Position numbers and translations under genes: made by a program
Assembly: GCF_008065095.1 (NCBI RefSeq)
Contig: NZ_CP042911.1
Location: forward strand, 8,880,001-8,912,000
Length of the DNA: 32,000 bases
Direction: 5' to 3'
Source of the DNA: Gemmata obscuriglobus
Lineage (GTDB): Bacteria; Planctomycetota; Planctomycetia; Gemmatales; Gemmataceae
Shown here: positions 4,524 through 28,344 of the stretch, piece by piece
Layout: the number at the start of each line of letters is the position of its first letter
Position numbering within the stretch: position 1 is the stretch's first letter
The notes under the pieces: model-generated
The model's input: the letters and a program-made list of their open reading frames with translations, nothing else
The model's database searches: none
What the model was told of the DNA's origin: nothing

Positions 4524-4874
<351 letters not shown>

Positions 4875-4912
4875 CCCCGCACTGCGGCGGGGCGGAAATT
4901 CAGGAAAGTGTA

Positions 4913-4941: not shown

Positions 4942-5012
4942 GGCTTGAGCGCTACGCGGCATTGCGAATTGTGCGTTCGCTGTTGCCGATCTCTGCCGCC
5001 GCGCATTGAGCC

Positions 5013-5059: not shown

Positions 5060-5079
5060 TCACGTGTCAAAACGGTGAG

Positions 5080-7898: not shown

Positions 7899-8768
7899 AT
7901 GACGCCGCTCTGTCTGGTCACCCTCTGCGCGATCGGCGCCGACCCGGCGCCATACCCGTACCCGAGCGCCCCCCCCCTGACCCCGCCCGACGTCGCGGCG
8001 CGGCGGGTGCCGTTCTACCTGAAGCCGGTCGAGAAGCGGATGCGCGAGCGGGTCGCGCAACTGGCGTTCGTCGGTGCAGGGCGCCCCGCACCGGCCCAAT
8101 CGTTCCTGTGGCAGCCGGCGTTTCAGGAGGACCACATCCTCCGCACCCCGGTGCGCGAGTACGTTCCGCAGCCGGGCGACATCGTGCTGAGCGCCGACGG
8201 CTCCCTGTTCTGGAAGACGATGCACAACCTCGCGGGCACCAGCCACCCGACGCACTCGATGATCGTGTTCCAGATGCCCGACGGGAAAATGGGCATCATT
8301 GAGGGCGGGCCGCACGACACGCTGAAGTGTCGCGTGCTGGAGGCCCTCCCGCACATGCTCTCCTACGAGAACGAGGGGCGCGTGTGGGTGCGGCGCCGCG
8401 CGTGCCCGCTCACGCCCGAGCAGTCGGCCCGGCTGACCGAGTTCGCGCTGGCCGTGGACGGGCGCGAGTTCGCCATCAAGCGGCTGGCGCGACAGCTCAC
8501 GCCGTTCCGCACCCGCGGCCCGGTGCGCACGTTCTTCGTGGGTCAGCCCCACGGCATCGGCCACGACAGCTACTTCTGTAGCGAGTTGGTGACCGAGGCG
8601 TGCGTGTACGCGGGCCTGCTGGACCCGCGCACGGCGCGCCCGTCGGCGACGTACCCGCGCGACCTGTTCATGGACCACTCGCTGAACCCCTACCTGAACC
8701 GCTATCTGAAGCTGGCCCCGGCGTGGGACCCGCCGGCCCGTTGGACCAGTTGGGCGCCGGGGCGTTGA
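7899..8768 (+). CDS. Permuted papain-like (NlpC/P60-related, YiiX/YaeF C92-like) protein with a hydrophobic N-terminus
   Basis: From ATG at 7899 (AGGAG at 7886-7890) the protein has GDIVLSADGS...SHPTHSMIVF (His segment) followed by the Cys segment SYFCSELV (Cys codon 8577-8579). His before Cys is the order expected for the circularly permuted C92 family. The N-terminus is MTPLCLVTLCAIG. Confidence 0.7.
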   Translation: MTPLCLVTLCAIGADPAPYPYPSAPPLTPPDVAARRVPFYLKPVEKRMRERVAQLAFVGAGRPAPAQSFLWQPAFQEDHILRTPVREYVPQPGDIVLSADGSLFWKTMHNLAGTSHPTHSMIVFQMPDGKMGIIEGGPHDTLKCRVLEALPHMLSYENEGRVWVRRRACPLTPEQSARLTEFALAVDGREFAIKRLARQLTPFRTRGPVRTFFVGQPHGIGHDSYFCSELVTEACVYAGLLDPRTARPSATYPRDLFMDHSLNPYLNRYLKLAPAWDPPARWTSWAPGR

Positions 8769-8820
8769 TTCCGGGCGGCGGGTGGGGGAGAATGGCGCCC
8801 CCGCCTTTGCCGGAGGCGCC

Positions 8821-11793: not shown

Positions 11794-11871
11794 CGCTCCT
11801 GGTGCCCTTGCGGGAGCAGTCAGTCCCGCCAAGCGAAACGCTGTGCGCCTCACTGTGAAGCGAGAATAGCC

Positions 11872-13257
11872 ATGCTTCCGAACCGCCGCGACTTCTTCTG
11901 CTCCGCGTCGGCCCTTGGGGCAACCGCGGCGCTTCACCTACTCGCGGGTGCGAAACCGCACCACGCGCCGAAGGCCAAGCGCGCGATCCAGATTTCACTC
12001 GTCGGCGGGTTGAGCCATCTCGACTCGTTCGACTATAAGCCCGATCTCACGCGGCTGCACGGGAAGGCGCTCGCGAGCGACACCAAACCGGACGTGTTCT
12101 TCGGACAGGTCGGGCTGCTGCGCAAGCCCGACTGGGAGTTTAAGCGGCGCGGGAAGAGCGGGCTGTGGGTGTCCGAGCTGTTCCCGCACCTCGCCGGCGT
12201 AGCCGACGAACTCACGGTCATCAACTCGATGACCGCGGACAGCGCGAACCACACTCCGGCGCTATTCGTGCTCAACAGCGGGTTCCAGTTCAATGGCTAC
12301 CCGGCGCTCGGCGCGTGGCTCTCCTACGGGCTCGGGAGCGAGGCCGAAGACCTGCCCGCGTTCGTCGTGCTGCCCGACGGCCGCGGCGACGCGAACGGGG
12401 CCGCGTCGAACTGGTCGAGCGGGTTCCTGCCGGCCCAGCACCAGGGCGTCATTTTTCGCGGCGGCGACGCGCCCGTGCGTGACCTCTTCCCCGAAAAGCC
12501 AATACCGGCGGGCGAAGAAAGCGCCTCACGCGCCGCGCTCGACGCTCTGAACGTGCTTCACCTTCAGAGGAGCGGCAACGAAGACGCGCTCGCGGCGCGG
12601 ATGCAGAGCTACGCCCTGGCCGCCAAGATGCAACTCGCGGTGCCCGCGGTCGCGGACCTCTCGAAAGAGTCGGCGAAGTTGAAATCGCAGTACGGCCTCG
12701 ACGACCCGAAAACCGCTGACTGCGGGCGGCGGTGCCTGCTCGCCCGGCGGCTGTTGGAAAAGGGCGTGCGGTTCGTACAGGTTTACAGCGGCGGGCCGAT
12801 CGCAGGCACGCCACGAACGAGCTGGGACGCGCACGAGAACGTGCTGGAGAACCACGGCGCCGAGGCGGCGCGCATCGACCGGCCCGTGGCGGCGCTGATC
12901 CAAGATCTGAAGCAGAAAGACATGCTGAAGGACACGCTCGTGCTCTTCACCACGGAGTTCGGCCGCACGCCGTTCACGCAGAGCGCCGGCAACGTGGTGG
13001 GCACCGGCCGCGACCACAACAAGTACGGCTTCACCTGCTGGCTCGCGGGCGCCGGGTGCAAGCCCGGAACCGCGTTCGGCTCGACCGACGACATCGGCTG
13101 GAAGGCGAGCGAGCACCCGGTGGCGTGGCACGACTTCCACGCCACCGTGCTGCACCTGCTGGGCATCGATCACGAGAAGCTGACGTTCTACCACAACGGC
13201 ATCAACCGCCGGCTCACCAACGTTCACGGCGAGGTGGTAAAGGGTGTGCTGGCGTGA
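11872..13257 (+). CDS. DUF1501 (sulfatase/AP-superfamily-like) protein with a Tat signal
   Basis: 461-aa ORF with a twin-arginine N-terminus MLPNRRDFFCSASALGATAA. DUF1501-like blocks are present (TADSANHTPA, FTTEFGRTP, GRDHN). It lies 78 nt downstream of the DUF1549/DUF1553 gene, the standard pairing in Planctomycetota. Confidence 0.92.
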   Translation: MLPNRRDFFCSASALGATAALHLLAGAKPHHAPKAKRAIQISLVGGLSHLDSFDYKPDLTRLHGKALASDTKPDVFFGQVGLLRKPDWEFKRRGKSGLWVSELFPHLAGVADELTVINSMTADSANHTPALFVLNSGFQFNGYPALGAWLSYGLGSEAEDLPAFVVLPDGRGDANGAASNWSSGFLPAQHQGVIFRGGDAPVRDLFPEKPIPAGEESASRAALDALNVLHLQRSGNEDALAARMQSYALAAKMQLAVPAVADLSKESAKLKSQYGLDDPKTADCGRRCLLARRLLEKGVRFVQVYSGGPIAGTPRTSWDAHENVLENHGAEAARIDRPVAALIQDLKQKDMLKDTLVLFTTEFGRTPFTQSAGNVVGTGRDHNKYGFTCWLAGAGCKPGTAFGSTDDIGWKASEHPVAWHDFHATVLHLLGIDHEKLTFYHNGINRRLTNVHGEVVKGVLA

Positions 13258-13293: not shown

Positions 13294-13415
13294 GTGTTTT
13301 GAGTGTGGTCCGCTCGCGGAGCGAGCGGTGCTTCGCGCATGCAATTAACCACATCCAATGGCCCTTGCGCGATGTGGCTACCGCTCGCGGAGCGAGCGGA
13401 CCACACGCAAAACAC
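13294..13415. repeat. Compound palindromic element in a convergent intergenic gap
   Basis: Two 35-nt arms are reverse complements except at 4 positions: 13294-13328 gtgttttgagtgtggtccgctcgcggagcgagcgg and 13381-13415 ccgctcgcggagcgagcggaccacacgcaaaacac. Each arm also contains its own 8-bp hairpin (ccgctcgc-gga-gcgagcgg), present as a 19-nt direct repeat 71 nt apart. An inner hairpin ccacatc/gatgtgg lies at 13349-13377. Confidence 0.85.
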
Positions 13416-13449
13416 GACCTTCATCACACAGCGCAGCCGCACGTGTGCC

Positions 13450-14115
13450 TTAACGACGCCGGCGATCCTCGCTCGCGTCCCACTCCTCCCACCTACTCTC
13501 GCGCGGCTCTTCTTCTTCATCGTCCGGAACCTCGACGCCGAGCTGGTTGAACAGTTCGCGTTTCCGCTCAGCGCCAGCATGATCGAAGAGCCGCGTCAGG
13601 CCGAACAGGAGCAGGCCGACGTTCGCAACGAACAGCAAGAACAGTCCGAAGTTTGTCGCGTCGGCGGCCTTGCGGTTCGCGGCCCCGCCGCTGAGTACGA
13701 ACCACATCACCACCGAAACGACGTGCGCGGCCACCTGGAACCCGGCCCCGACCTTTCCGTTGACGAAGAACGAGAGCAGCCCGAGGACACCGGCGGCGAT
13801 CAGCCCGAGCAGCAGCGCGCCGTCCATTTGTCGCGCCAGGAGCGCCCGGTTCAATTCGGCACCGGCGCCGATCCCGGCGAGTATCGTCAGCGCCCCGATC
13901 CACACCCGCGCGTAGCCCGCGATCATCGACTTCAGGCTGACGCCGATCTGCTTCCCGCGGAACTCGCCCCCGCTCTCCGTGCCCTCGATCACGATGTACG
14001 AGCGGAGCGGGAACAGGGGAAGGTAGTTCAGGTGCGCGAAGGTGGTGACGACGTAACAGACCCCGGGCACCCGATCGACCTTCCCGTACGACTTCTCACC
14101 GAAAATGATAATCAT
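13450..14115 (-). CDS. Hypothetical multi-pass membrane protein with an acidic/basic C-terminal tail
   Basis: 221-aa ORF. It has several hydrophobic segments (VWIGALTILAGIGAGA, ALLLGLIAAGVLGLLSFFV, AHVVSVVMWFVLSG, FGLFLLFVANVGLLLFGL). The tail is VPDDEEEEPRESRWEEWDASEDRRRR. No family is recognised. Amino-acid composition and third-position G/C are more protein-like than for the antisense ORF 13303-14253. Confidence 0.7.
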   Translation of the reverse strand: MIIIFGEKSYGKVDRVPGVCYVVTTFAHLNYLPLFPLRSYIVIEGTESGGEFRGKQIGVSLKSMIAGYARVWIGALTILAGIGAGAELNRALLARQMDGALLLGLIAAGVLGLLSFFVNGKVGAGFQVAAHVVSVVMWFVLSGGAANRKAADATNFGLFLLFVANVGLLLFGLTRLFDHAGAERKRELFNQLGVEVPDDEEEEPRESRWEEWDASEDRRRR

Positions 14116-14156
14116 GGGCGAACTTCACTCCCGGGTTTGGTTGTGCGGAACGCGGG

Positions 14157-16058
14157 TCACTTTATCACGCCCACGGTGACCCGTGAAGGGTGTTCGGCGT
14201 CGCGGTACACGCGGTGCGTTTGCTTCTTGAAGTCCTTCGCGTCGGCCTTGTAGATGTCGCAGAACGTTTGCGGGTTGCGGTCCACGAGCGGGAACCACGT
14301 GCTCTGCACCTGCACCATGAGGCGGTGCCCGGGGCGCAGGGTGTGGAACACGTCGGGCATCGTGAACTTGACCTTCGTGACCTCGCCGGGCTTGAACGGC
14401 TCGGGCGTCTCGAAGCTGTTGCGGAACTTGCCGCGGAACGGCTCGCCCCGGATGAGCTGCTGGTAGCCGCCCATTCTCACGCCGGTGGGGTTCGGGTCGA
14501 GATCGGGGAAATCGTCCGGGTACACGTCGATCACCTTGACCACCCAGTCGGCGTCGGTGCCGGTCGTGGAGACGTACAGTTCCACCTCGACCGGCCCGGC
14601 GAGGGTGAGATCGGACTTCAGCGCCTCGGTCTGGTACACGAGCACGTCCGGCCGCGTGGCCGCGAACCGCTGGTCGGCGGTCATGTACTCGCGCACCATG
14701 CCGACATCGGTCTTGTTGACGAACGGCACCGGCTTCGCCGGATCACTGACGAACTCGTCGAACGGTTCCGACAGGGGGTGAGGAAGGTGCCCGGGTGTTC
14801 CCAATTCGCCCTTGCCGAAGAATTGATAAGCGGTTTTCTCGGCGGCCTTCGGCGGCCAGGCATCGAACTTGCGCCACACGTTGGTCCCGGTCTCGAACAC
14901 CCACGCCTTCGGGTGCGTGCTCTTGCCGTCGCCCTTCAGGTGCTGCTCGAAGAACGGGAACTCGATCTTCTCGCGGTAGAACTCGCTCGTGTTGGAGTTG
15001 AACCGCACGTCGCCCAGGTGGTCGCCGGTGCCGCGGCTCCAGCCGCCGTGGTCCCACGGCCCCATGACGAGGTGGTTGTTCGGCGGCGGGCTGTTGGCCT
15101 CCGCGTGCTTGTAGACCTCCAGCGCCCCGAACAGGTTCTCGGCGTCGAACCAGCCCCCGACCGTCAAGACCGCCGGGCGGATGTTCTTGACGTGCTGGCG
15201 GATGTTGCGGGCCTTCCAGAACCCGTCATAGGTGCCGTGCTCCATCACCTCGTTCCAGAACGCGATCTCGCCTTTGTAGTACTTGGCGTCGGCGTTCTTG
15301 AGCGGCCCCATATCGAGGAAGAACTTGTACCCGTCGGGGGTCTCGTGGTCGAACCGGTCGCGGCTGAACTTCTTGGTCGGCTCCGGCCGCGCCTTGCCGA
15401 ACCCGGACATGAAGTTGAAGCAGTGCGGCAGGAACAGGCAGCCGTTGTGGTGGAAGTCGTCACCGATGAACCACTCGCTCACCGGCGCCTGTGGGGAGAC
15501 GGCCTTCACCGCCGGGTGGGCGTCGATCATCCCGCACACGGTGTAGAAGCCGGGGTACGAGATGCCCGTGATCCCCACGCGCCCGTTGTGCCCCTTCACG
15601 TTCTTGACGAGCCACTCGACGGTGTCATAGGTGTCGCTGGACTCGTCGATGTCCTTGCCCTTCTTGGCGGGGTTGTGCGGGCGCACGTTCACGTACTCGC
15701 CCTCGGACATCCACCGCCCGCGCACGTCCTGCTGCACGAAGATGTAGCCGCTCTGGACGAACAGCGCGCCGGGGCGGAGCGCGTCGGGGTACTTGTCCGG
15801 GCCGTAGGGCGCCACGCTGTACGGCGTGCGGGTGAGAATCATCGGGTACGTTTTGGCGTCGTCCTTCGGAACGTAAACGGTGGTGAACAGCTTGACCCCG
15901 TCGCGCATCGGAATCTGGTACTCGTACTTCGTGTAGTTGGCGCGGATGTGGTCCTTGAGTTCCGCCCCCGCGAGAGGCTTCGGCGGGGCCGCGGGCTGTG
16001 CGAACAGCGGTTGCGGGGCGAAGACCAGTGCGAGCGCGAGTGCGAACCAGCGGGGCAT
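14157..16058 (-). CDS. CocE/NonD family hydrolase (X-Pro dipeptidyl-peptidase, S15 family), secreted
   Basis: 633-aa ORF with signal-like MPRWFALALALVFAPQPLFAQ. The nucleophile elbow GISYPG (GxSYxG) is present. The family-typical N-terminal block is TRTPYS...GYIFVQQDVRGR, and there is a C-terminal beta-sandwich-like region. Confidence 0.9.
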   Translation of the reverse strand: MPRWFALALALVFAPQPLFAQPAAPPKPLAGAELKDHIRANYTKYEYQIPMRDGVKLFTTVYVPKDDAKTYPMILTRTPYSVAPYGPDKYPDALRPGALFVQSGYIFVQQDVRGRWMSEGEYVNVRPHNPAKKGKDIDESSDTYDTVEWLVKNVKGHNGRVGITGISYPGFYTVCGMIDAHPAVKAVSPQAPVSEWFIGDDFHHNGCLFLPHCFNFMSGFGKARPEPTKKFSRDRFDHETPDGYKFFLDMGPLKNADAKYYKGEIAFWNEVMEHGTYDGFWKARNIRQHVKNIRPAVLTVGGWFDAENLFGALEVYKHAEANSPPPNNHLVMGPWDHGGWSRGTGDHLGDVRFNSNTSEFYREKIEFPFFEQHLKGDGKSTHPKAWVFETGTNVWRKFDAWPPKAAEKTAYQFFGKGELGTPGHLPHPLSEPFDEFVSDPAKPVPFVNKTDVGMVREYMTADQRFAATRPDVLVYQTEALKSDLTLAGPVEVELYVSTTGTDADWVVKVIDVYPDDFPDLDPNPTGVRMGGYQQLIRGEPFRGKFRNSFETPEPFKPGEVTKVKFTMPDVFHTLRPGHRLMVQVQSTWFPLVDRNPQTFCDIYKADAKDFKKQTHRVYRDAEHPSRVTVGVIK

Positions 16059-16076
16059 GAGGCACCGGGGAACGGG

Positions 16077-16529
16077 TCAGGGGGTGAAGACCGGAACCGC
16101 GGCCGACGCCGCGGCGGAGAGGAGAGCGGGAGAGGTTGTCGCGAGCGGGAGAGCGGTGCGCAAGGCAAGTTCGAGGCTCGCCGCCTCGTGAACCGGAAGG
16201 CCGTAGGTGCGAGCGAGATCAAGTACTTCGGGCCAGGCCAGGTGCGGGGCGCGTTCGTCGAGGTAGATCCGGTAGGCCGGCAGCGCCACAAAAACGCCGT
16301 CCGTCCGGAGCCAGTTCGTGTCGTTTCGACGGACCGCCGCCAGCAGTTCCTCGGCTAATTCAAGCGGCCAGCCCGTGGCAACGACCGCGGCCGTCCCGGC
16401 GGCCAATCGAAAACGAACGCGGTGGGAGTAGATGGTGTACCGCGCCGGGATGCCCCAGTCCGCGGCGACGGACGTGTGGAGAACAAACGCCGGCGGAGCG
16501 CTCGCCGGAGCGGACGTCGGGAAAATCAT
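16077..16529 (-). CDS. PIN (VapC)-like protein with apparently substituted catalytic acidic residues
   Basis: The ATG at 16529 overlaps the antitoxin stop (ATGA at 16526-16529). The C-terminus HEAASLELALRTALPLATTSPALLSAAA resembles the VapC block YDAAYLELA..G.PLATLD..L..AA. The N-terminus VLHTSV resembles hLDTsV. The longer 209-aa ORF version would overlap the antitoxin by 180 nt and is Arg/Ala/Pro-rich. Confidence 0.6.
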   Translation of the reverse strand: MIFPTSAPASAPPAFVLHTSVAADWGIPARYTIYSHRVRFRLAAGTAAVVATGWPLELAEELLAAVRRNDTNWLRTDGVFVALPAYRIYLDERAPHLAWPEVLDLARTYGLPVHEAASLELALRTALPLATTSPALLSAAASAAVPVFTP

Positions 16530-16804
16530 GCGGCGGGCGACTCCGGCAGCGGCCGCCCTTGCGGGAGCGATTCGGGGGGGTAAGGCAGCCCGTCTTCCGC
16601 GTGCCATCGGGCGATGTTGCGTTCGAACTCGTCCAGGACGCGCTGGCGCTCGGTTTCGTCCATTCCGGGCGCCACCTGCGGAGCCGCGCCGAGCGAAGCG
16701 AGCCACGTGCCGTTGTCCGCGATCACGATCTGCTCGCCCGCGGCGGCGCGCCGGATTAAATCGGGAAGGTGCTCGCGGGCCTCCGCGATCGTCACGACCG
16801 TCAT
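16526..16804 (-). CDS. Phd/YefM-type antitoxin-like protein
   Basis: 92-aa ORF. The N-terminus MTVVTIAEAREHLPDLIRRAAAGEQIVIADNGTWLASL matches the Phd/YefM antitoxin N-domain pattern (seaR.nL..ll..v..ge.v.I...G...a.l). It is translationally coupled to the PIN-like ORF. Confidence 0.75.
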   Translation of the reverse strand: MTVVTIAEAREHLPDLIRRAAAGEQIVIADNGTWLASLGAAPQVAPGMDETERQRVLDEFERNIARWHAEDGLPYPPESLPQGRPLPESPAA

Positions 16805-16819
16805 GTTCGCCTCCGCGGG

Positions 16820-17782
16820 TCAGGCCGGGTTCGCTTTCAGGAACACATCTATCTCACCAATCTCGGCGGGCGTCAACCGCCAGTCGGCGGCGCCGAGCAG
16901 TTCTTTCAACTGGCCCGGCCGGCGCGCCCCCACGATCGCCGCAGTAACGGCCGGGTGCCGCAGCACCCACGCGATCGCCACCGCGCCCGGTGCGCGCCCG
17001 TGCCGGGCGCCGATCGTCTTCAGCAGGTCCACGAGGTTCAGGTTGCGCGTCAGCAGCGGCTCCTGGTAGTGGCGGTTCTTCTCCTTGCGCCAGTCGTCGG
17101 CGGGCATGGCCACGACCCGCTCGCGGGTCATGGCCCCGGTGAGCAGCCCGCTCGCCATCGGCGAGTAGGCGATCACCCCGATGTTGTGCGCCTGGCAGTA
17201 CGGAAGGATGCTCTCCTCGACCTCCGGCCGGATCATGGAGTACGGCGGCTGGAGCGAGGTGATCGGCCCGAACTTCGACACCTGGGCCATCTGCTCGGCG
17301 CTGAAGTTGGACACGCCGGCCCAGCGGATCTTGCCCTCCTCCTTGAGCTTCACGAGCGTTTGCCAGCCCTCGTCAATGTCCTCCGGCGGCTCGGGCCAGT
17401 GGATCTGGTACAGGTCGATCACGTCCACCTTCAGCCGCTTCAAGCTGGCCTCGCACTCGGCGCGGATGCTGTCGGCCGTCAGACGCTTCCCGATCTGCCG
17501 GCTCTCGTCCCACACGCGGGCGCACTTGGTGAACACGTACGGCCGCTTCGGCACGCCCGCCAGGGCCTTCGCGACCACCTCTTCCGAGTGGCCGAGCCCG
17601 TACACCGCCGCGGTGTCGATCCAGTTGACGCCCAGGTCGAGCGCCTCGCGGATGGTCGCGACGCTCTCGGCGTCGTCCTGGGCGCCCCAGGCGAACGCCC
17701 ACCCCCCGCCGCCGATGGCCCACGCGCCGAACCCGATGGGGGTGATGCTCAGGTCCGAGTGGCCGAGTTGTCGCAGTTGCAT
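16820..17782 (-). CDS. Aldo/keto reductase family oxidoreductase
   Basis: From ATG at 17782 the protein reads MQLRQLGHSDLSITPIGFGAWAIGG...LDLGVNWIDTAAVYGLGHSEEVV...DLYQIHWPE...IRWAGVSNF...IAYSPMASGLLTG, which are classic AKR blocks. It is 320 aa. The track ORF 16820-18595 is a run-on into antisense of the neighbouring gene. Confidence 0.93.
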   Translation of the reverse strand: MQLRQLGHSDLSITPIGFGAWAIGGGGWAFAWGAQDDAESVATIREALDLGVNWIDTAAVYGLGHSEEVVAKALAGVPKRPYVFTKCARVWDESRQIGKRLTADSIRAECEASLKRLKVDVIDLYQIHWPEPPEDIDEGWQTLVKLKEEGKIRWAGVSNFSAEQMAQVSKFGPITSLQPPYSMIRPEVEESILPYCQAHNIGVIAYSPMASGLLTGAMTRERVVAMPADDWRKEKNRHYQEPLLTRNLNLVDLLKTIGARHGRAPGAVAIAWVLRHPAVTAAIVGARRPGQLKELLGAADWRLTPAEIGEIDVFLKANPA

Positions 17783-17860
17783 TCGTGTGATCTCTGTTCG
17801 CCGACTGATGAGAGCCGCCCCGCACTTTGCGGCCGGGGTCCGCCTTGATAGCGTGACCGG

Positions 17861-20314: not shown

Positions 20315-20484
20315 GGGACCTCCGGGTAACAGGGCAGCGGGGGACAGTTTACACCGCCTCGCGAGGCGGTGTATCATCTGTTTCGCCCGTACCTTTTCCG
20401 CAGGTGAGCGTTCCAAAGGAGGGTGGCTTTTTGTCGCAGGGCGTGAGCAAGTCTTCGCCCCTTACCGATCGCCGCTGACGAACA

Positions 20485-20967
20485 ATGATCCTACGTGAAG
20501 CGACTGAAGCCGACTGGCCTGCCGTGTGGCACCTGTTTCAGAGCGTGACAGCGAGCGGGGACGCATTCGCTTACGACGAATCGACACCCGAAGCCGTCGC
20601 CCGGAAGCTGTGGCTCGACCCGCCCGCCGTTTGCGTCGTTTGTGAAGATGAGTCGCGGTTTGCCGGGACATACTACGTCCGCCCGAACTATCCGGGCCGC
20701 GGCGGCCACGTGGCGAACGCGGGGTATATGGTCGCCCCCGAGTCCCGCGGGCGCGGGCTGGCGGTCGCGATGTGCGAGCACTCGCTGGAAACGGCCCGAC
20801 GGCTCGGGTTCACTGCGATGCAGTTCAACTTCGTGGTGGGTACGAACGCGGCTGCGGTGCGCGCATGGGAGCGGTGTGGGTTCGCAACAGTCGGGCGCCT
20901 GCCGCTCGCGTTCAAGCACAAAGAGTTGGGATTCGTCGACGCGCTGGTGATGTTCCGCGCGCTGTAA
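20485..20967 (+). CDS. GNAT family N-acetyltransferase
   Basis: 160-aa ORF. The acetyl-CoA binding motif A is RGRGLAVAM, followed by a typical GNAT C-terminal segment AVRAWERCGFATVG. Confidence 0.88.
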   Translation: MILREATEADWPAVWHLFQSVTASGDAFAYDESTPEAVARKLWLDPPAVCVVCEDESRFAGTYYVRPNYPGRGGHVANAGYMVAPESRGRGLAVAMCEHSLETARRLGFTAMQFNFVVGTNAAAVRAWERCGFATVGRLPLAFKHKELGFVDALVMFRAL

Positions 20968-20971
20968 GTGT

Positions 20972-21015
20972 GTTATCGCCCTGCGACCGACTGGGAGCAG
21001 CCGCAGGGCGATAAC
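20972..21015. terminator. Bidirectional terminator-like hairpin between convergent genes
   Basis: gttatcgccctgcg (20972-20985) pairs perfectly with cgcagggcgataac (21002-21015) around a 16-nt loop. It starts 5 nt after the GNAT stop and ends 27 nt before the stop of the minus-strand gene. Confidence 0.5.
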
Positions 21016-21041
21016 CAGCACAGCGAAGGCGGCGTGCCGAA

Positions 21042-21326
21042 TTACGGAGCCGGTGGAGTGTCGCTGCCCTTCGGCGCGGCCGCGGGCGCTCCCGCAGTCG
21101 CAGGCGGTGCCGCTTCGCCGAGCTTCAGCACCGCCGGAACCGGCGTCGAGGGGGCCGACTTGCCGCCGTACTCGCTGAAATCGAGGTACAGCAGCACGCA
21201 GCCGATAGTGACGGCCATAAAGGTGATGAACAGCATCACCACGTACGGGCCGTCTCGCTTCACCGGCTCTGGCCGTCGGGGGCGGTCATCATCACGGTCA
21301 CGGTCGCGATCCTTTTTTCGGGCCAT
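21042..21326 (-). CDS. Small single-pass membrane protein (protein D of the coiled-coil cluster)
   Basis: 94-aa ORF. The charged N-terminus is MARKKDRDRDRDDDRPRRPEPVKRDG. One hydrophobic helix follows (PYVVMLFITFMAVTIGCVLLYL), then a Pro/Ala-rich tail. It starts 34 nt downstream of the preceding gene. Third codon positions are mostly G/C. Confidence 0.6.
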   Translation of the reverse strand: MARKKDRDRDRDDDRPRRPEPVKRDGPYVVMLFITFMAVTIGCVLLYLDFSEYGGKSAPSTPVPAVLKLGEAAPPATAGAPAAAPKGSDTPPAP

Positions 21327-21360
21327 TGGTGCGGCCTCCGTAATGCGTTAGGGTGCGCGG

Positions 21361-22272
21361 TCAGCGGTTCGGGCGCGGGTCACCAACGATGCTCACCTGG
21401 TCGCCCTTGCGGGGCAGCTCCTCAGGCTTTAGTTGTGAAACGGGCACTTGGCGGGCCGGGCGGAACTCGGCCACGGCGTTCTTCGGGTACGCCGACTTCG
21501 TTACCACCAGGGTGCCCAAATACCGGCCGCCATTAGTCTCGCGGAACACGTCCAGACGTGCCCCGGGTGTCACGCCGGCATCAAGGCCGACACTGATTTC
21601 GACGAAGCTACCCGCGAGATCGCTCACCACCGTGCCGCGGACGTTTTCCGGGACCGGTGGTGGGGCCTTATCGACGGAACGAAGTACAGTCGCCGCACCG
21701 CCGCCGCCGCCGGACTGCCTCAGCTCCGAGAGCTGGGCCTGGAGCGACGCGGCCCGGGCCACGTTTTCGTCGGAGATCGCCCGCGCGAGTTTGGCGTCGT
21801 TCTCGGCGCGGAGCCGCTCGCGGTTAGCGTTCTCCGCGTCCCGCACCAACTGAACCCGGTCGTTCTCGAGTACCGTGTTGCGCTTGCGGGTGTCTTCGAG
21901 TTCGCTCAGCGTGGCCTTCTGCTGGGCCACCAGGAGCCGCTCGCGCTGCTCGACGGCGGCGTGGTTGGTGGTCCACTTCCGAAAGTCCTCGTCGCTCTTG
22001 CTGCTGCTGGCCAACTGATCCGCAATCGTTTTGTCCAGGTCGGCGGTGCGGCTCCGCTCGGCGCTCAACAGGTTCGCAATCCGCGCCACTTCGGCGGCGC
22101 TGGTGCTCAGTTCGGTGCGGCGGTTCGTCTCACTCTCCTTGAGCGCCTTTTCGGCCGCATCGGCCCGTGCCTTCCAGTTGGTCCGCGTGACGTACACGTT
22201 GAGCGTCAGCGCCATCCACGCGACGGAGGCGATGAGAACCAGGAACGTCAGGATCTTGCCGAGCCAACTCAT
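21361..22272 (-). CDS. N-terminally anchored long coiled-coil protein with a C-terminal beta-rich domain (protein C)
   Basis: From ATG at 22272 the anchor is MSWLGKILTFLVLIASVAWMALTLNVYVTRTNW. About 155 aa of E/R/K/Q/A/L-rich heptad-like sequence follows, then a GGGGG linker. The last ~90-aa segment is VRGTVVSDLAGSFVEISVGLDAGVTPGARLDVFRE...GTLVVTKS...GDQVSIVG. No known family is recognised. Confidence 0.8.
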   Translation of the reverse strand: MSWLGKILTFLVLIASVAWMALTLNVYVTRTNWKARADAAEKALKESETNRRTELSTSAAEVARIANLLSAERSRTADLDKTIADQLASSSKSDEDFRKWTTNHAAVEQRERLLVAQQKATLSELEDTRKRNTVLENDRVQLVRDAENANRERLRAENDAKLARAISDENVARAASLQAQLSELRQSGGGGGAATVLRSVDKAPPPVPENVRGTVVSDLAGSFVEISVGLDAGVTPGARLDVFRETNGGRYLGTLVVTKSAYPKNAVAEFRPARQVPVSQLKPEELPRKGDQVSIVGDPRPNR

Positions 22273-22414
22273 CGCACGCCCTCCCGCGGTGTGAGTCCCG
22301 AGTGCTGAATTCCAGATACCGGGTCCGGCCCGGGGCCGCCGACGCGCGGGAGGCACTACGGCCCCACGACGCGCGGCACGAGCCTGGGAACCCGGAGCCC
22401 GGAACGCATTGTTC

Positions 22415-23185
22415 TCACGGGTTCGAAACGCCGAGCAGTTTCAACCGGCCGCGCAACTGGCTTGCGCGCCGCTGCACCGTCTCCCGGGTCTCGAACACAT
22501 CCACCTCGAACGTGTCCAAGAAAAACAGTTCGGCCTGGACGCTGTCGCGGATCGTATTCATGGCCACCAGCCGTTTCTCAGTGGCGAGCACCTCGGCACT
22601 GAGGGTGTCGTACAGCCGGCGCTGGTCGGTGATCTCCTTCGTCAGCAACTCGATGCGCTGCGTGTCGGCCGACACCGAGTTGGTCAACGCGTCGAGCCCC
22701 GGCAGCGGCAGCGCCTTGCCGTCGGCGCCCACCTCGCTCCCCAGGACCGCCTCCCCCTTGGGCCGACCGGCGGCGTCGAAGCTCAGATCGTACAGCCGGG
22801 TCTTCGGGTCCACGACCGGAAGATAAAAGCCCTTACCGCTCTTCGGGTTCGCGGGATCGATCAGGTCCTTCGGGTTCCCCTTGTGCGCGTACTCGATGAG
22901 TTGGGCGTACCCGTTGCGCCGGTTCGCGCGGAACCGCTCGTGCGCCTCCAGGGACTTGAGGGTCTCCCCCCACAGCCCGCTGGCCGCCTTCGCGGCCTCG
23001 CCCAGCGAGTCGATCTCGGCCTTCAGCTCGGCGTAGCCGGCCGCCCCTTCGCCCTTCTCCGCCCCGCCTTCCGGGACCGGGTTGAACCACGTCGGGCGCT
23101 GCGCGTACACGCCCACCGCCCACGTCATCATCGTGAGCCCGACGACGAGGAGCAGGAAGGCCAACAGCTTGCCGATTGCCGTCAT
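22415..23185 (-). CDS. N-terminally anchored coiled-coil protein (protein B)
   Basis: From ATG at 23185 the anchor is MTAIGKLLAFLLLVVGLTMMTWAVGVYAQRPTW. A short helical segment and a central non-repetitive region follow (GNPKDLIDPANPKSGKGFYLPVVDPKTRLYDL). The C-terminal heptad-like segment is QRIELLTKEITDQRRLYDTLSAEVLATEKRLVAMNTIRDSVQAEL. No known family is recognised. Confidence 0.8.
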   Translation of the reverse strand: MTAIGKLLAFLLLVVGLTMMTWAVGVYAQRPTWFNPVPEGGAEKGEGAAGYAELKAEIDSLGEAAKAASGLWGETLKSLEAHERFRANRRNGYAQLIEYAHKGNPKDLIDPANPKSGKGFYLPVVDPKTRLYDLSFDAAGRPKGEAVLGSEVGADGKALPLPGLDALTNSVSADTQRIELLTKEITDQRRLYDTLSAEVLATEKRLVAMNTIRDSVQAELFFLDTFEVDVFETRETVQRRASQLRGRLKLLGVSNP

Positions 23186-23293
23186 GGTCGCACCTGGCCC
23201 GGTGAATGCCTCGTCCCGATCGATCCCGGCACAGTCGAAAGCCCGTGCCGCACCCGAAACACCTCTAACACCAGCCAACAACCCGCCCCGCGA

Positions 23294-24535
23294 TCAGGGC
23301 CGGGCGGACGGCGGCTGCCCGTACCGTTCGCGCTCGACGTCCACCAGCAGGGCCTCGAGCCGGTACACCTCGTCGAGGGTCAGCGCGACCTCGCGCTGGA
23401 TCTCGTACAACTGCCTCTCGATGTTACTTTGGCGCACCAGCGACTGGTCGACCTCGGCCCGAACCTTTTCCAGTTGGGCGCCCAGGTCCCTCAGTTGCGT
23501 CCGGCGGCGGCTGACGGCGTCGTCCGCCGCGGCCTTCGCGTCGTCCAGCTTGGCCCGCTCTTGGGAAACCGTCCGCGCCCGGTCCAGGCTGTGCCGAGTC
23601 TCGTTCAGCAGCACATCGTTGCGGAGCTGAAACACCGCTTGGTCCGCCATAATCGGCTGGTCCACTTGCTCGCGCATCAGCCGGAAGCGAACGGCCTGGC
23701 TGGCGATCGCACGCACATAGTGCCGGAGCCCGACCACTGTCGCCACCCGCTGCTGCCACGCGCTGTCCTGATCGAGGTGAACCAGGAGCTGAGCGATCCG
23801 GTCGCGTCGGTCGCCCTCGTCGGTCGGCGCCGCCGGCTTGATCGCCGCGAGCGCGTCGGGGTTACCGGCGGCCTCGTCCATCTTCTTCTTGAGTTCGCCC
23901 CATTTGGCGGGAGCCAGTGCGCCGGACTCGGAATCGTACAGCTTCGGCGCAACGCGGTAGAACTTGCGGTCCAACAGGTGAACGAGCTGCTCCGCGTCCG
24001 CGGCGTATTGCTCCGCGGTCTTCGGCTTGCCGTCGGCACCGGCCGGCGCGGCGAGCGACTGAAACAGCAGCCGCTCGTCCATCGTCTCCGCCTGGAGCAG
24101 CAGCCGCTTCAGCACAGCAGCCACACGCTGGGCGGCCTCGGGGGCCGCGCCCAACTCGGCCTTCACGATGCCGTGGACCCGCAAGACCTCGGCCGACTGG
24201 CTCACCACCGCTTCGGTCGAGGCGAGCCCGGAGGGCGGCCCGCCCTTGGCCCCGGCGTTGGCCGGCGCCTTCGCCATGTCGGCGAAGTGCTTGTCGAGCA
24301 GGGCCTTGCCGACCGTACTGGTCTGCTGGCCGCCGCCCATCGCCGCGACGAACGGGGTCTCGTTGTCCGGGGCGAACCGGTCGCCGTCGAGCGGCATGCC
24401 GCGCAAAACCAGCACGTGGCGGAGCCCCGCCGCGTTGAGCTGCTGGCGGCCCTTGTAGTCCTGCGCGCCGAAGTAGACGTACGCAACCCCGGCGACGAGG
24501 GTCAAGAACACCAGCAGGATGCCGAACAGTCTCAT
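23294..24535 (-). CDS. N-terminally anchored alpha-helical / coiled-coil protein (protein A)
   Basis: From ATG at 24535 the anchor is MRLFGILLVFLTLVAGVAYVYFG. About 270 aa of mixed helical sequence follow, then a C-terminal ~120-aa coiled-coil-like stretch (RAKLDDAKAAADDAVSRRRTQLRDLGAQLEKVRAEVDQSLVRQSNIERQLYEIQREVALTLDEVYRLEALL). No known family is recognised. Confidence 0.8.
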   Translation of the reverse strand: MRLFGILLVFLTLVAGVAYVYFGAQDYKGRQQLNAAGLRHVLVLRGMPLDGDRFAPDNETPFVAAMGGGQQTSTVGKALLDKHFADMAKAPANAGAKGGPPSGLASTEAVVSQSAEVLRVHGIVKAELGAAPEAAQRVAAVLKRLLLQAETMDERLLFQSLAAPAGADGKPKTAEQYAADAEQLVHLLDRKFYRVAPKLYDSESGALAPAKWGELKKKMDEAAGNPDALAAIKPAAPTDEGDRRDRIAQLLVHLDQDSAWQQRVATVVGLRHYVRAIASQAVRFRLMREQVDQPIMADQAVFQLRNDVLLNETRHSLDRARTVSQERAKLDDAKAAADDAVSRRRTQLRDLGAQLEKVRAEVDQSLVRQSNIERQLYEIQREVALTLDEVYRLEALLVDVERERYGQPPSARP

Positions 24536-24920
24536 GGCGTTCGTGTCCCTGCACGGGCCGGGCGCGAGTCCCCGGCGGCCCAAGGTTGAGTTCTGTGAAA
24601 GGCGCTCAAACGCGCTTCCAGACTGCGATTCTGCCGGACAACACGGACCTTGACAAGCGCGGAACGTCCACAAACAGCGGGAGTTCGGAAACTTGGAAAG
24701 GCGGTGGCGGTCCTACCGGTTATGTGGCGCCCGAGGTGAACCTTTCAGGTATTCTACCCCGGGCAGAACGCGCCTGCGCGACCACGTGTCGGGTTCGGGT
24801 CACAGTGAGGGAACCGGCGGCGTGTCGTGCGCGACGGCCGCGCACGGCGGCCACATTTGAGCTATAAGTAAACTAATCCGCGCGCCGATCCCTACCGGCG
24901 CTTACGGCCGGAGCGCTCAC

Positions 24921-26321
24921 ATGGCAGTCGAACCGCCGGTCCCGCAGCAACTCGGCAACTACGACATTACGTCGAAGATCGCCGAGGGCGGGATGGGCAC
25001 CGTGTATAAGGCCCGCAACCGCGCCACGGGCGAGGTTGTGGCCATAAAGGTCATCGCGCCGGCCACCGCCAAAAACCCGATCCTGCTCCAACGGTTCGAG
25101 CGCGAGTTCCTCGCGGCCAAGGTGCTCGACCACCCGAACGTCGTGCGGGCCCTCGACTACAGCGGCGCGCCGCCGCACCCGTTCCTGGTCATGGAGTTCG
25201 TGGACGGCCTGTCGATCGGCCAGTGCATTGAGCAGAAGGGTAAGTACGCCGAGGAAGAGGCGGTCCGGCTCGTCGCACAGGTGTGCGACGGGCTCCAGCG
25301 GGCGCACAAGCAAGGGTTGGTACACCGCGACGTCAAACCCGACAACATCCTCGTGGACAAAGAGGGCGTGGCGAAGCTCACCGACATGGGGTTGGTTAAG
25401 GAGGTCGAGGGCGATTTGAACCTGACCCGCACCGGGCGCGGGTTGGGCACACCGCACTACATGGCCCCCGAGCAGTTCCGGAACGCCAAAACGGTCGACG
25501 TGCGCGGCGACATCTACTCCCTGGGCGCCACCCTGTACGCGATGGTGACGGGTGTGGTCCCGTTCGACAACGCCAGCCCGCTCGACTGCTGGATGCGCAA
25601 AATCCGCAACGAGTTCCGCACCCCGAAAGAGCTGAACCCGGCCCTTTCCGACCGCGTGGACTGGGCGATCCGGCGCGCCATGAGTGCGGAACCGGCCCAG
25701 CGCCCGGCGAGTTGCCGCGAGTTCCTTGAGGACCTGACCGGCCAGAGCCGACCGTCCCAGCAAAACCCGAACCAGCAAGGCCAGCCCGCACCTGGGGCCG
25801 ACGTGTGGTATCTGGTGTACCGCGACGAGAACGAAAAGCCGCACACGGTAAAGGGCAGCACGGAGGGGATCCGCAACGCGCTGCGCGACAGCCTGCTCGG
25901 CGATCCGTCGGAAGTGCTGGTGAGCCGCACAAAGCACGGGCAGTTCACCCCGCTCGCGAGCGTGCCGGAGTTCCGCGACCTCGTGGTCACCCCCGCCCCG
26001 GTCGCGGTCCCGGCGGCCCGCACCCCCAACCCCGACGAAACGGTCGAATACCGCGAAGCAGCGGCCCCCGGCCCCACTTCCTCCGGAAACCTGGGCCGGC
26101 GCCCGGCCCCGAAAGCCTCCACCGCCCCGAAGCCCCCGCCCTACAGCTACAACAGCCCTTCGGGCGCGTACCCGCCACCCAAGGGTAGCCGTGAGCACAA
26201 GGTGCGGGTCGAAGCGCGCGCGCCTCGGGAAGAACCGAAACCGTTCAACTGGACCCCGGTGCTAGCGATCATCGTTCTGGTCCTCACCGCGATCATCGGA
26301 TACCTGGTCCTGGCGAAGTGA
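24921..26321 (+). CDS. Hanks-type Ser/Thr protein kinase with a GYF_2-like domain and a C-terminal transmembrane anchor
   Basis: 466-aa ORF. Kinase motifs are the Gly-loop region IAEGGMGTVYKA, VAIK, HRDVKPDNIL, DMG (in place of DFG) and GTPHYMAPE. A GYF_2/DUF4339-like segment follows (VWYLVYRDENEKPHTVKGSTEGIRNALRDSLLGDPSEVLVSRTKHGQFTPLASVPEFRDL). A Pro-rich linker leads to the terminal helix WTPVLAIIVLVLTAIIGYLVLAK. Confidence 0.93.
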   Translation: MAVEPPVPQQLGNYDITSKIAEGGMGTVYKARNRATGEVVAIKVIAPATAKNPILLQRFEREFLAAKVLDHPNVVRALDYSGAPPHPFLVMEFVDGLSIGQCIEQKGKYAEEEAVRLVAQVCDGLQRAHKQGLVHRDVKPDNILVDKEGVAKLTDMGLVKEVEGDLNLTRTGRGLGTPHYMAPEQFRNAKTVDVRGDIYSLGATLYAMVTGVVPFDNASPLDCWMRKIRNEFRTPKELNPALSDRVDWAIRRAMSAEPAQRPASCREFLEDLTGQSRPSQQNPNQQGQPAPGADVWYLVYRDENEKPHTVKGSTEGIRNALRDSLLGDPSEVLVSRTKHGQFTPLASVPEFRDLVVTPAPVAVPAARTPNPDETVEYREAAAPGPTSSGNLGRRPAPKASTAPKPPPYSYNSPSGAYPPPKGSREHKVRVEARAPREEPKPFNWTPVLAIIVLVLTAIIGYLVLAK

Positions 26322-26749: not shown

Positions 26750-27553
26750 ATGCGTCGAGCAACGGCGTGGATCGTCGTGGTCGGCGTCGCGTGTCTCGGG
26801 ACCCCGGCGTCGGCCGCGGCCGACACGATCGACGGGTTCTGGGTGTCGATCGCCTCCGGCGTGGCGGGGTCGTCCACCGCGACCGGGTACCAGGACTTGT
26901 GGTTCGAGACCCCGCACGGACCGCCGCCTATAGCGGTGACCCAATTGACGGGTGGAAACGTCGAAGCCACTACCGGCGGCGGGAGCAGTTTTTTCACCGG
27001 CGGTGCGGTTCCCGTGGTGCTGCCCACCACTGACGGCTACGCGTACCTCGCGGGCGGCGCCAAGCCCAGCGACCTCAGCGACGCTCTGAAGCGCCAAACG
27101 AGTGGCGGGCAAGGGCTCGCGACCGCGGCCCCGGACGCGACCGCGACCACCCCCCCGGAGAACGCGGCGCTCTTGACCGCCAACCTCGGCGACCCGGACA
27201 CCAACGGCACCCGTGCCCTCACCGTCACACTCACCGATGCTGCGTCGAATCCGATCGGGACCGGAACCGTGACCGTCCCCGACGGCGGCTGGTGGGTCAT
27301 CGGCCTCGGGCCGGGCACAAAGGAACAGTCGGGTGGCGGTGGCGACAACGGCGGTGGTGGGAACAATGGCGGCGGTGGAGACGGTGGCAACGGTGGTGGT
27401 GGGAACAATGGCGGCGGTGGGGACGGTGGCGGGAACAATGGCGGCGGTGGCGGGCCGGTCGCGACGCCCGAACCGGCAACGGGGGTGCTCCTGGGCATCG
27501 GCGGGTTGGGCGCGGCCGGGTGGAGGCTCGTGAAGCGCCGACGCGGCAACTGA
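26750..27553 (+). CDS. PEP-CTERM sorting-domain protein with a Gly/Asn/Asp low-complexity region
   Basis: 267-aa ORF with signal-like MRRATAWIVVVGVACLGTPASAAA. The C-terminal PEP-CTERM motif is TPEPATGVLLGIGGLGAAGWRLVKRRRGN (PEP, hydrophobic helix, Arg cluster). It is preceded by GGGGDNGGGGNNGGGGDGGNGGGGNNGGGGDGGGNNGGGGG. Confidence 0.9.
   Translation: MRRATAWIVVVGVACLGTPASAAADTIDGFWVSIASGVAGSSTATGYQDLWFETPHGPPPIAVTQLTGGNVEATTGGGSSFFTGGAVPVVLPTTDGYAYLAGGAKPSDLSDALKRQTSGGQGLATAAPDATATTPPENAALLTANLGDPDTNGTRALTVTLTDAASNPIGTGTVTVPDGGWWVIGLGPGTKEQSGGGGDNGGGGNNGGGGDGGNGGGGNNGGGGDGGGNNGGGGGPVATPEPATGVLLGIGGLGAAGWRLVKRRRGN
27331..27456 (+). repeat. Imperfect in-frame tandem DNA repeat encoding the Gly/Asn/Asp tract
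   Basis: ggtgggaacaatggcggcggtgg occurs at 27356-27378 and 27398-27420. A one-mismatch copy (ggcgggaacaatggcggcggtgg) lies at 27428-27450. The spacings of 42 and 30 nt are both multiples of 3. These copies are embedded in ggY-rich sequence. Confidence 0.85.
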
Positions 27554-27747
27554 TTCCCCTCCCCGACACGGAGCACATTTGAAGCACGGCCCTCGGGCCG
27601 TGCTTCCTGTTTTCCCGGCCCGCATCGGACGGGCCGATGCCTTCCCTTCGCGGCCCCCGCTGGAAACGCCCCTTCCGGTCCCTAATGATGTCTCCGAGGG
27701 CCGCTTCGGCGCGGCCCGCAACTTTGTGTTCACCAACGGAGACACAT

Positions 27748-28344
27748 ATGCCGGCTCAGGTCACGAAGGAAGCCCCGGACTTCACCGCGAAGGCAGTCGT
27801 CAACGGCCAGATCGTTAACGAGTACAAGCTGTCCAGCACCCGCGGCAAGTACACCATCCTGTTCTTCTACCCGCTCGACTTCACCTTCGTGTGCCCGACC
27901 GAGATCATCGCGTTCAGCGACCGGATCGCCGAGTTCGAGAAGCGCAACTGCCAGGTGGTCGGGGTGTCGGTGGACAGCCAGTACTCGCACCTCGCGTGGA
28001 TCGAAACCCCGCGCGCCAAGGGGGGCCTGGGCGAACTCAAGTACCCGCTGGTGGCCGACCTGACGAAAACCATCAGCACCGACTACGGCGTGCTGCTCGA
28101 GGGCGCGGGGGTGGCACTCCGCGGGCTGTTCCTGATTGACACGAAGGGCATCATCCGCCACATCACCATCAACGACCTGCCGCTGGGCCGCAGCGTCGAT
28201 GAGGCGATCCGGGTGCTGGACGCGCTCCAGTTCTTCGAGAAAAACGGCGAAGTGTGCCCGGCCGACTGGAAGCCCGGCGCGATGACGATCAACACGAACA
28301 ACGCAAAGGAATATTTCGAGAAGGCCGCGGCTGGTCAGAAGTAA
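27748..28344 (+). CDS. Typical 2-Cys peroxiredoxin (AhpC/Prx1 subfamily)
   Basis: From ATG at 27748 the protein starts [17 protein letters not shown]. The peroxidatic Cys motif is [14 protein letters not shown] and the resolving Cys motif is GEVCPADW. It is 198 aa. The upstream part of the track ORF (27637-) is not Prx-like. Confidence 0.95.

Follow-up and report, generated by a model that had tools for sequence, protein, structure and literature searches.

Within a 32,000-nucleotide (nt) stretch of the Gemmata obscuriglobus genome (contig NZ_CP042911.1, positions 8,880,001 to 8,912,000; hereafter the window), we examined four consecutive minus-strand genes, named here A, B, C and D, and a gene for a Ser/Thr kinase, K, that diverges from A. 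The reading that we favour, with somewhat better than even confidence, is that the products of A–D form an undescribed inner-membrane-anchored and mainly periplasmic scaffold or tether complex of Gemmata-type planctomycetes, which would be coupled to K. On sequence grounds, A–D represent four new protein families within a familiar kind, that of the bitopic periplasmic coiled-coil complexes, and a function is proposed for them below. This reading draws on the conserved order of the four genes, on an anchor common to A, B and C, on heptad-patterned segments in the same three proteins, on homologues that place the C-type barrel outside the cytoplasm, and on the recurrence of one particular kinase beside the module.

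Conservation and gene order of the A–D genes

Word-indexed searches recovered 107 homologues of C, 83 of A and 88 of B, none of them named. Hidden Markov models were built from the alignments of C (alignment A1), A (alignment A2) and B (alignment A3) and were run on the translated open reading frames (ORFs) of every fetched locus. In about 40 loci, all of those that were long enough to tell, the genes had the order and orientation A-B-C-D, and this arrangement was intact even where C was only about 23–40% identical (L038, L039, L040, L043 and L044). The loci that keep this order have GC contents from 55% to 74%, and D orthologues were found downstream of C in all loci reaching that far. The first-pass annotation had proposed a conserved syntenic unit, and indeed the order of the four genes was never broken in the loci that we examined.

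An exhaustive search with the C profile gave 4237 cluster representatives when the cut-off was set at E ≤ 1e-3; of these, 1741 remained at E ≤ 1e-10 and 239 at E ≤ 1e-30, and therefore the C family is far larger than the word-based search suggested. Most of the best 150 representatives were full-length matches of 280–305 amino acids (aa). Among labelled genomes, the module was found in Gemmata, Frigoriglobus, Urbifossiella, Gemmataceae and Gemmatales, and in a few metagenome-assembled genomes labelled Isosphaera or Singulisphaera, according to a genome scan that was pattern-limited and reaches close relatives. A Blastopirellula marina protein is referred to in one annotation of Gemmata massiliana, and the flanks of the distant loci carry families that are planctomycete hallmarks (PSCyt/PSD1, DUF1501, DUF1559 and DUF1573). 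The host had been predicted to be a planctomycete, and it is G. obscuriglobus, with A, B and C 100% identical to the proteins of that species whose locus tags are given in Table 1. As a further conserved partner we considered two unassigned proteins encoded near the module, one of 609 aa in L003 and one of 611 aa in L044; they are not homologous and were rejected.

A common anchor and heptad segments in A, B and C

A, B and C each start with a stub of 2–6 residues followed by an uncharged span of about 23–28 residues. The anchors are homologous according to hhalign (C versus B, E = 7e-8 over 64 columns; C versus A, E = 1.4e-5), and they have the consensus M-[ST]-x-[LF]-G-K-x-L-x-F-x-N-L; beyond the helix comes an R..W motif, which takes the form TRTNW in C. 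In each of the three families, the anchor motif could still be seen in the loci that are most distant. The hhalign similarity was confined to these N-terminal anchors, with nothing related beyond them, and we therefore rejected the view that A, B and C are three paralogues of the same layout.

Heptad patterns were assessed by Fourier analysis of the family-averaged hydrophobicity; a crude 28-residue window score gave no call for C. The strongest period was exactly 3.50 residues in C 35–187, A 270–404 and B 165–250, with a power that was reached by 4–21 of 500 shuffles across the three segments, while residues 35–165 of B had no 3.50 peak. The same layout that had been ascribed to the three proteins thus holds for the anchor plus coiled coil, but not for the domains beyond, which differ (globular in A, Pro/Gly-rich in B and a barrel in C).

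Domain anatomy of the four proteins

The AlphaFold2 model of A (predicted local distance difference test, pLDDT, 90; predicted template-modelling score, pTM, 0.71) comprises the anchor helix, a beta-hairpin (residues 59–76), a helical globular domain (113–268) and a helix (270–404). A Foldseek search of the PDB with this model gave no structural relative (best E = 0.16), and A is confidently predicted to have a novel fold. In the alignment, B is composed of the N-terminal anchor, a conserved Pro/Gly-rich middle (GNPKDLIDP.NPKS.GKGFY.PV.DP) and a C-terminal region of helix type.

The model of C (pLDDT 83) has one helix from residue 3 to residue 187, a linker, and a small beta-barrel at residues 212–294, in which R212, G213, G229, G233, R244, L252, G253, D291 and V293 are invariant. 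The spacing between the TRTNW and GxDxG motifs, measured in 168 family members, had a median of 194 aa with an interquartile range of 192–195, and this narrow range points to a constraint on the length of the C rod. In Foldseek, the best structural matches of the barrel were the middle domain of FlgT (3w1e, E = 3.6e-4) and the N-terminal barrel of the F1-ATPase beta subunit (1fx0_B, E = 1.5e-3), followed by MreC (E = 2.5e-3). The resemblance to FlgT and F1 covers about 95 residues at 14–21% identity, but C lies in no flagellar or ATPase context.

D has an N-tail rich in K, R and D, one transmembrane (TM) helix, a conserved YLD..EYGGK.PPKE...LGE motif and a Pro/Ala-rich tail. It had been described as a single-pass protein with a charged N-tail and a Pro/Ala tail, and it proved to be so. 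We infer that the N-tail is cytoplasmic.

Membrane topology of A, B and C

Several observations on homologues bear on the side of the membrane where the soluble parts of A, B and C lie. Of the best 150 C representatives, 146 sequences were fetched, and the anchor motif stands at the start of 121 of these. In at least 12 of those best 150, a putative cleavable signal peptide replaces the anchor (..ARA/DD.. or ..VRA/DDKK..) and is followed by the coiled coil and the barrel. A paralogue of this type, which we call C2, is encoded between C and D in L045, L046 and L040; examples of C2 N-termini are MRRIGLAAFVTALAVILAPGTNPVRA/DDKK and MPRRLLALCFIVLGAANLRA/DDKK, which on visual inspection resemble classical signal peptides. 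In G. obscuriglobus, C2 is absent from the A–D locus.

Another protein, encoded in L037, combines Sigma70_r2/r4 domains of the extracytoplasmic function (ECF) sigma type, one TM helix, a long Pro-rich region and a terminal barrel that is 56% identical to that of C; the order of sigma domains, TM helix and barrel places the barrel outside the cytoplasm. The charges that flank the TM helices were also examined: the difference is about zero in A and C once the N-terminal amine and the acidic residues are counted, and the C-terminal flank of the B helix is net negative.

On account of the paralogues with putative signal peptides, the C2 genes inside the A–D string and the L037 barrel, we read A, B and C as N-in bitopic proteins with periplasmic bodies. 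Judging from these homologues, the soluble parts of the three proteins are most likely periplasmic, and periplasmic bodies would make the complex an envelope-side one, rather than a cytoplasmic scaffold directly phosphorylated by the kinase. As an observation in its own right, the C-type barrel appears to be a mobile extracytoplasmic module that was reused in L037 as the outer end of a sigma/anti-sigma-like fusion.

The divergent kinase

K matches the Pfam kinase model PF00069 with E = 2.7e-50 (171.7 bits against a cut-off of 31.7), and its catalytic motifs can be read directly: VAIKV at residue 40, HRDVKPDN at 135, DMG at 155 and APE at 182. Its predicted product is thus a bona fide Hanks-type Ser/Thr kinase. 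The kinase domain is followed by a conserved domain of about 65 aa (residues 294–358), which a low-complexity linker separates from a C-terminal anchor. The conserved domain had no match in Pfam at E ≤ 10; by eye it was likened to GYF domains, a likeness that we rejected as it found no Pfam match even at that threshold. The domain is kept even in the distant locus L043.

In each of the 25 orthologues that are not truncated at a contig end (25/25), only 1–5 residues separate the membrane anchor of K from the stop codon, and therefore K has no ectodomain. The adjacent membrane-anchored Ser/Thr kinase that had been reported is hence real, and its anchor is a C-terminal tail anchor. The same K orthologue was found divergently upstream of A in 34 of the 38 informative loci. 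These orthologues had E-values from 1e-125 to 0; the other kinases of those loci reached about 1e-30.

Operon-like organisation

The gaps between the genes are 108 nt (A/B), 142 nt (B/C) and 34 nt (C/D) by direct arithmetic, and they fall to 2–27 nt in some other genomes. The ATG starts that were chosen coincide with the N-termini of the homologues (MRLFG.., MTAIGK.. and MSWLGK..). Downstream of D there is a GC-rich hairpin with a folding energy of -48.7 kcal/mol (z = -7.4), and none of 200 shuffles folded equally well. This hairpin is likely a bidirectional terminator without a T-tract; a consensus terminator scan passed over it, since the hairpin is not followed by a run of T. K and A are separated by a divergent spacer of 385 nt. 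The four minus-strand ORFs, the three gaps, the 3' hairpin, the spacer and the divergent kinase all lie where the first-pass annotation had placed them (Table 1).

The K/A spacer contains a conserved non-coding block of 146 nt that is 64–97% identical in 10 other Gemmata-like loci, compared to 29–52% for the remaining spacer. The block holds a sigma-70-like promoter candidate, TTGTCA-17-CAGAAT (24656–24628, minus strand), which was the sole promoter-like match across positions 20400–25000, with none called within the A–D string. Other conserved motifs of the block include GACATAACCG.TAGGACCG and GCCTTTCC..GTTTCCGA.CTCCC. RNAalifold found no consensus RNA structure in the conserved intergenic block (upstream 103 nt), and Rfam gave no match anywhere in the window. 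Given that it has no consensus RNA fold, the block is probably a set of protein-binding regulatory sites. A single promoter-like element, the hairpin after D and the short gaps in other genomes fit one A–D transcript, and we therefore treat A–D as a single predicted transcript.

Table 1. Coordinates of the module genes, their predicted segments and associated features. Positions are those of the window unless a related locus is named. The signal peptides of C2 are candidates judged by eye.
Feature	Location	Strand	Description or basis
Gene A	23294..24535	minus	413 aa, GobsT_75240; ORF and translation
A residues 46–268	23732..24400	minus	beta-hairpin and helical globular domain; model, conserved motifs in alignment A2
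A residues 270–404	23324..23728	minus	single long helix, predicted coiled-coil segment; heptad period 3.50 (4/500 shuffles)
Gene B	22415..23185	minus	256 aa, GobsT_75230; ORF and translation
B residues 165–250	22436-22693	minus	predicted coiled coil; heptad period
Gene C	21361..22272	minus	303 aa, GobsT_75220; ORF and translation
C residues 35–187	21712..22170	minus	rod (predicted coiled-coil segment); model helix, period 3.50
C residues 212–294	21391..21639	minus	predicted beta-barrel; model and alignment
Gene D	21042..21326	minus	94 aa; ORF and translation
GC-rich hairpin	20972..21015		where D and a GNAT acetyltransferase gene converge, between their stop codons
Conserved non-coding block, K/A spacer	24612..24757	minus	146 nt; holds the promoter candidate
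Kinase gene K	24921..26321	plus	466 aa, Hanks-type Ser/Thr kinase, divergent from A
K kinase domain	24960-25706	plus	Pfam Pkinase
K conserved ~65-aa domain	25800-25994	plus	residues 294–358; DVWYLVYRDE...PEFRDLVVTP
K tail anchor	26244-26318	plus	C-terminal membrane helix, F[ND]WTPVL... (FNWTPVL here)
C2, signal-peptide C paralogue	L045 8001-8975		between C and D
C2, signal-peptide C paralogue	L046 8001-8744		between C and D
C2, signal-peptide C paralogue	L040 11442-12125		between C and D
ECF-sigma-TM-Pro-rich protein	L037 5619-7664		ends in a C-type barrel

Comparison with known families and systems

A–D had no match in Pfam or NCBIfam at E ≤ 1, nor among the PADLOC defence-system profiles, where K matches only generic kinase models such as PD-T4-6. 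Searches of all PDB sequences with phmmer and with the A, B and C profiles (E ≤ 10) returned coiled-coil noise alone (for example EscO, CdvA and myosin). No paper on the module was found in the literature on the locus tags, on Gemmata or planctomycete coiled-coil, kinase and budding proteins, and on tail-anchored kinases. The earlier statement that the proteins belong to no recognisable family therefore agrees with Pfam, NCBIfam, PADLOC and the PDB sequences. Neither the profile searches nor, for A and C, the structure searches placed the proteins in a known family, and synteny holds outside the G. obscuriglobus genome.

Homologues in IMG carry the automatic names 'cell division protein FtsL' (C homologue P0393) and 'myosin heavy subunit'. 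Seven distant C homologues gave coiled-coil noise alone in NCBIfam at E ≤ 10 (SMC, Rad50, RNase Y, FlbB and DotF), and these names, which the profiles did not reproduce, were consequently rejected. HlyD and other membrane-fusion adaptors, Wzz and FliL were also rejected, with nothing at E ≤ 1 for the Gemmata proteins; the values for distant C homologues (HlyD, E = 0.29; FliL, E = 0.15) are noise far below the cut-offs. Moreover, Wzz needs two TM helices, whereas A–D have one each.

MreC is a bitopic protein with a periplasmic coiled coil and then a barrel, and the predicted architecture of C recalls it. The MreC plan has two barrels, whereas C has a single barrel, a rod of about 150 residues and no linkage to mreB or mreD, neither of which was found in the window or around the module in related loci. 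The match of the C barrel to Listeria monocytogenes MreC (2j5u) is weak (E = 2.5e-3, root-mean-square deviation 14.9 over 107 columns). C has no match to MreC (PF04085/PRK13922) in Pfam or NCBIfam at E ≤ 1, and the best MreC match among the distant C homologues had E = 0.21 (10.8 bits against a cut-off of 343). MreC was thus rejected as the family of C. The lack of any MreC resemblance that had been noted by eye stands for profile membership, but not at the level of the fold, where the C barrel shows a weak MreC/FlgT resemblance.

TolA has an N-terminal inner-membrane anchor, a long helical domain that spans the periplasm and a small C-terminal tip domain, and conserved residues of its TM helix make contacts within the membrane. 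The C model follows this plan of anchor, long helix and tip domain, but there is no sequence or profile similarity, including no match to the profile of domain III, and the tip of C is a beta-barrel, not TolA domain III. No tolQ or tolR genes (MotA/ExbB type) are conserved beside the module, whose partner is a Hanks kinase; MotA_ExbB/ExbD genes occur 4 kb away in L003 and L004 only and are not conserved in the other loci. TolA was therefore set aside.

The FtsQ-FtsL-FtsB and PilN-PilO proteins are likewise small bitopic proteins that are encoded together and associate through TM helices and periplasmic coiled coils. The module proteins are 2–4 times larger; POTRA and ferredoxin-like domains are absent from them, and their genes do not lie among dcw or pil genes. 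FtsB/DivIC, FtsL and FtsQ were rejected, with no match to the DivIC, FtsL or POTRA_FtsQ profiles and no solved FtsQLB chain in the search of the PDB sequences. PilN/PilO was rejected too, with no profile match, stubs of 2–6 residues that contain no INLLP, and no pil genes nearby. Finally, K is like PknB and StkP in combining a complete Hanks kinase domain with a single TM helix. PknB and StkP have extracellular PASTA sensor domains after that helix, whereas K ends 1–5 residues past it, so that partner proteins would have to supply whatever extracytoplasmic input there is.

A proposed mechanism and its alternatives

We propose that the homologous N-terminal anchors would hold A, B and C in the membrane with essentially no cytoplasmic part, and that the heptad segments (C 35–187, A 270–404 and B 165–250) would run parallel outward as a heteromeric rod of fixed length, the rod of C measuring roughly 22–28 nm. 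Such a rod is geometrically plausible, as the heptads of C start at the membrane and those of A and B after membrane-proximal domains, so that a parallel run is possible. At the rod tip, the C barrel would face the wall, the outer-membrane side or adjacent copies. In F1-ATPase and FlgT, barrels of the C-type fold are packed side by side into rings, and in MreC they provide contacts; the C tip could therefore oligomerise or bind a partner in the wall or outer membrane. D would add a fourth TM helix with a charged cytoplasmic tail, and K and the N-tail of D would be the only cytoplasmic parts of the module.

Being cytoplasmic and only tail-anchored, K would meet the complex only within the membrane or via the D tail. 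The conserved anchors of A–C, together with the TM helix of D and the tail anchor of K, suggest a specific TM bundle. The state of the periplasmic scaffold may be relayed to K through this bundle, or K may control assembly of the bundle; the outcome would be that envelope geometry is coupled to cytoplasmic phospho-signalling. The module could even be a planctomycete-specific periplasmic ruler, in which a rod of A, B and C (and C2) with a ring or lattice of barrels either fixes or gauges the distance from the cytoplasmic membrane to the wall or outer membrane and reports it to K through TM contacts, though we regard this as unlikely. The envelope or scaffold module with a kinase, which had been suggested as plausible, remains so as far as sequence goes, but nothing that we found ties the module to FtsZ-independent division.

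A number of points weigh against the periplasmic scaffold coupled to K. Basic residues (K+R) are more frequent after the TM helix than before it, with counts of 0.9 before and 2.9 after in A, and of 1.0 and 3.9 in C, and the signal peptides of the C paralogues were judged by eye. The structural matches of the barrel are weak (E from 3.6e-4 to 1e-2; template-modelling score of about 0.2 over the whole chain) and its fold is generic. Ser and Thr are both absent from the N-tail of G. obscuriglobus D, and D therefore does not suggest itself as a kinase substrate. Four loci (L027, L029, L031 and L044) keep A–D with other genes in place of the adjacent kinase, and K is therefore not obligatory in cis. 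Reach beyond Gemmatales relies on unlabelled metagenome contigs and on one Blastopirellula annotation string. Finally, the mutual assembly of A–D, the parallel rod, the contact with K and the physiological role are all features that we infer.

The charge counts would suit a scaffold on the cytoplasmic face, in which A–C are anchored by their heads, the coiled coils lie in the cytoplasm, and the proteins are direct substrates or docking sites of K. Head-anchored topology is seen in EzrA and RNase Y, and DivIVA, GpsB, MapZ and EzrA are targets of StkP/PknB in Gram-positive bacteria. The stubs of 2–6 residues, the excess of K+R after the TM helix in A and C, the cytoplasmic and co-conserved catalytic domain of the kinase, and noise-level NCBIfam matches to the RNase Y N-terminus all agree with this arrangement. 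It is nevertheless given little probability, as paralogues of C with putative signal peptides are encoded in the same predicted operon, a C-type barrel lies at the extracytoplasmic end of the ECF-sigma-TM protein, the flank of B is net negative and the net charge differences of A and C are about zero. If the bodies are periplasmic, the module might instead be a diverged morphogenetic or divisome complex, with counterparts of MreC and/or FtsQ-FtsL-FtsB that position wall synthesis as FtsZ-less planctomycetes bud. Bitopic proteins with periplasmic coiled coils, the succession of TM helix, coiled coil and barrel in C, and the presence of MreC 2j5u in the Foldseek list (E = 2.5e-3) are in line with this idea, as are the automatic IMG name 'FtsL' of one C homologue and the fact that planctomycetes lack canonical division genes or can dispense with them (PMC10632474). 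We consider it decidedly unlikely, since MreC, DivIC/FtsB, FtsL and FtsQ gave no match in Pfam or NCBIfam even at E ≤ 1–10, the profile searches of PDB sequences returned no MreC or FtsQLB chain, C has one barrel and not two on a much longer rod, and no mreB, mreD, penicillin-binding protein or SEDS gene is present in the window or in the conserved neighbourhood.

Three small bitopic proteins in a row plus a small fourth one also recall PilN/PilO/PilP or GspL/GspM, and A–D might by analogy be an accessory or alignment part of a trans-envelope machine whose other genes lie elsewhere, be it a pilus, a secretion system or the crateriform structure; in L003 and L004, TadE-like genes are found 0.5 kb downstream of the module. 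Yet no ATPase, secretin, platform protein or pilin is conserved beside the module, the flanks differ between loci, and there is neither a PilN/PilO/GspL/GspM profile match nor an INLLP-type cytoplasmic tail, which makes this origin very improbable. High-GC genomes yield many long spurious ORFs and coiled-coil profiles draw noise, so A–D might be no functional unit at all but four unrelated low-complexity ORFs, adjacent by chance and with spurious coiled-coil similarity. The full-length homologues with invariant motifs outside the coiled coils, the confident models of A and C, the strict gene order across divergent genomes, and the conserved starts and anchor motif leave this with a probability close to nil, and chance adjacency is effectively refuted by synteny and conservation. 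The periplasmic scaffold coupled to K is thus the reading that we retain.

Wider neighbourhood

Beyond the kinase, the window encodes a PEP-CTERM protein (26750–27553) and a 1-Cys peroxiredoxin of the AhpC/TSA type (27637–28344). A PEP-CTERM and peroxiredoxin pair also adjoins the module in L046, beyond D (9217–10741), and a peroxiredoxin is found in L042 (3061–3651). The two PEP-CTERM proteins, one from the window and one from L046, seem to have homologous N-termini. The adjacency may reflect residual synteny or a functional link.

In L003 and L004, which represent one distant lineage, two TadE-like genes (11820–13043) and a MotA_ExbB gene with two ExbD genes (14909–17066) follow the module within 0.5–6 kb; none of these were seen in the other loci. 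Elsewhere in the window, positions 8782–13257 hold a typical planctomycete pair of PSCyt1/PSCyt2/PSD1 and DUF1501 genes. Other long ORFs without a Pfam family lie on the plus strand at 4825–7410, 7737–8768, 13303–14253 and 16769–17848; these are putative genes, and one of them encodes 861 aa.

Significance for the planctomycete envelope

Planctomycetes have an enlarged and deeply invaginated periplasm, and to our knowledge genes are known for very few components of their envelope architecture. Budding or division proceeds without FtsZ in these bacteria, and the phylum has hundreds of specific genes of unknown function, with 108 essential in Planctopirus limnophila (PMC10632474). With the present analysis, four hypothetical proteins become a defined and testable unit with a shared anchor, a probable periplasmic site and a length-conserved rod tipped by a barrel, and the one specific tail-anchored kinase provides a genetic handle on the module. 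If it is true that K reads the complex through the membrane, K would exemplify a Hanks kinase whose sensor domain resides in separate bitopic proteins. Should the ruler reading be true, the module would be a means by which Gemmata-type cells control their large invaginated periplasm, and possibly bud formation. Even if the module were dispensable or purely structural, A–D would still be a new and widespread set of families that merits Pfam and NCBIfam models.

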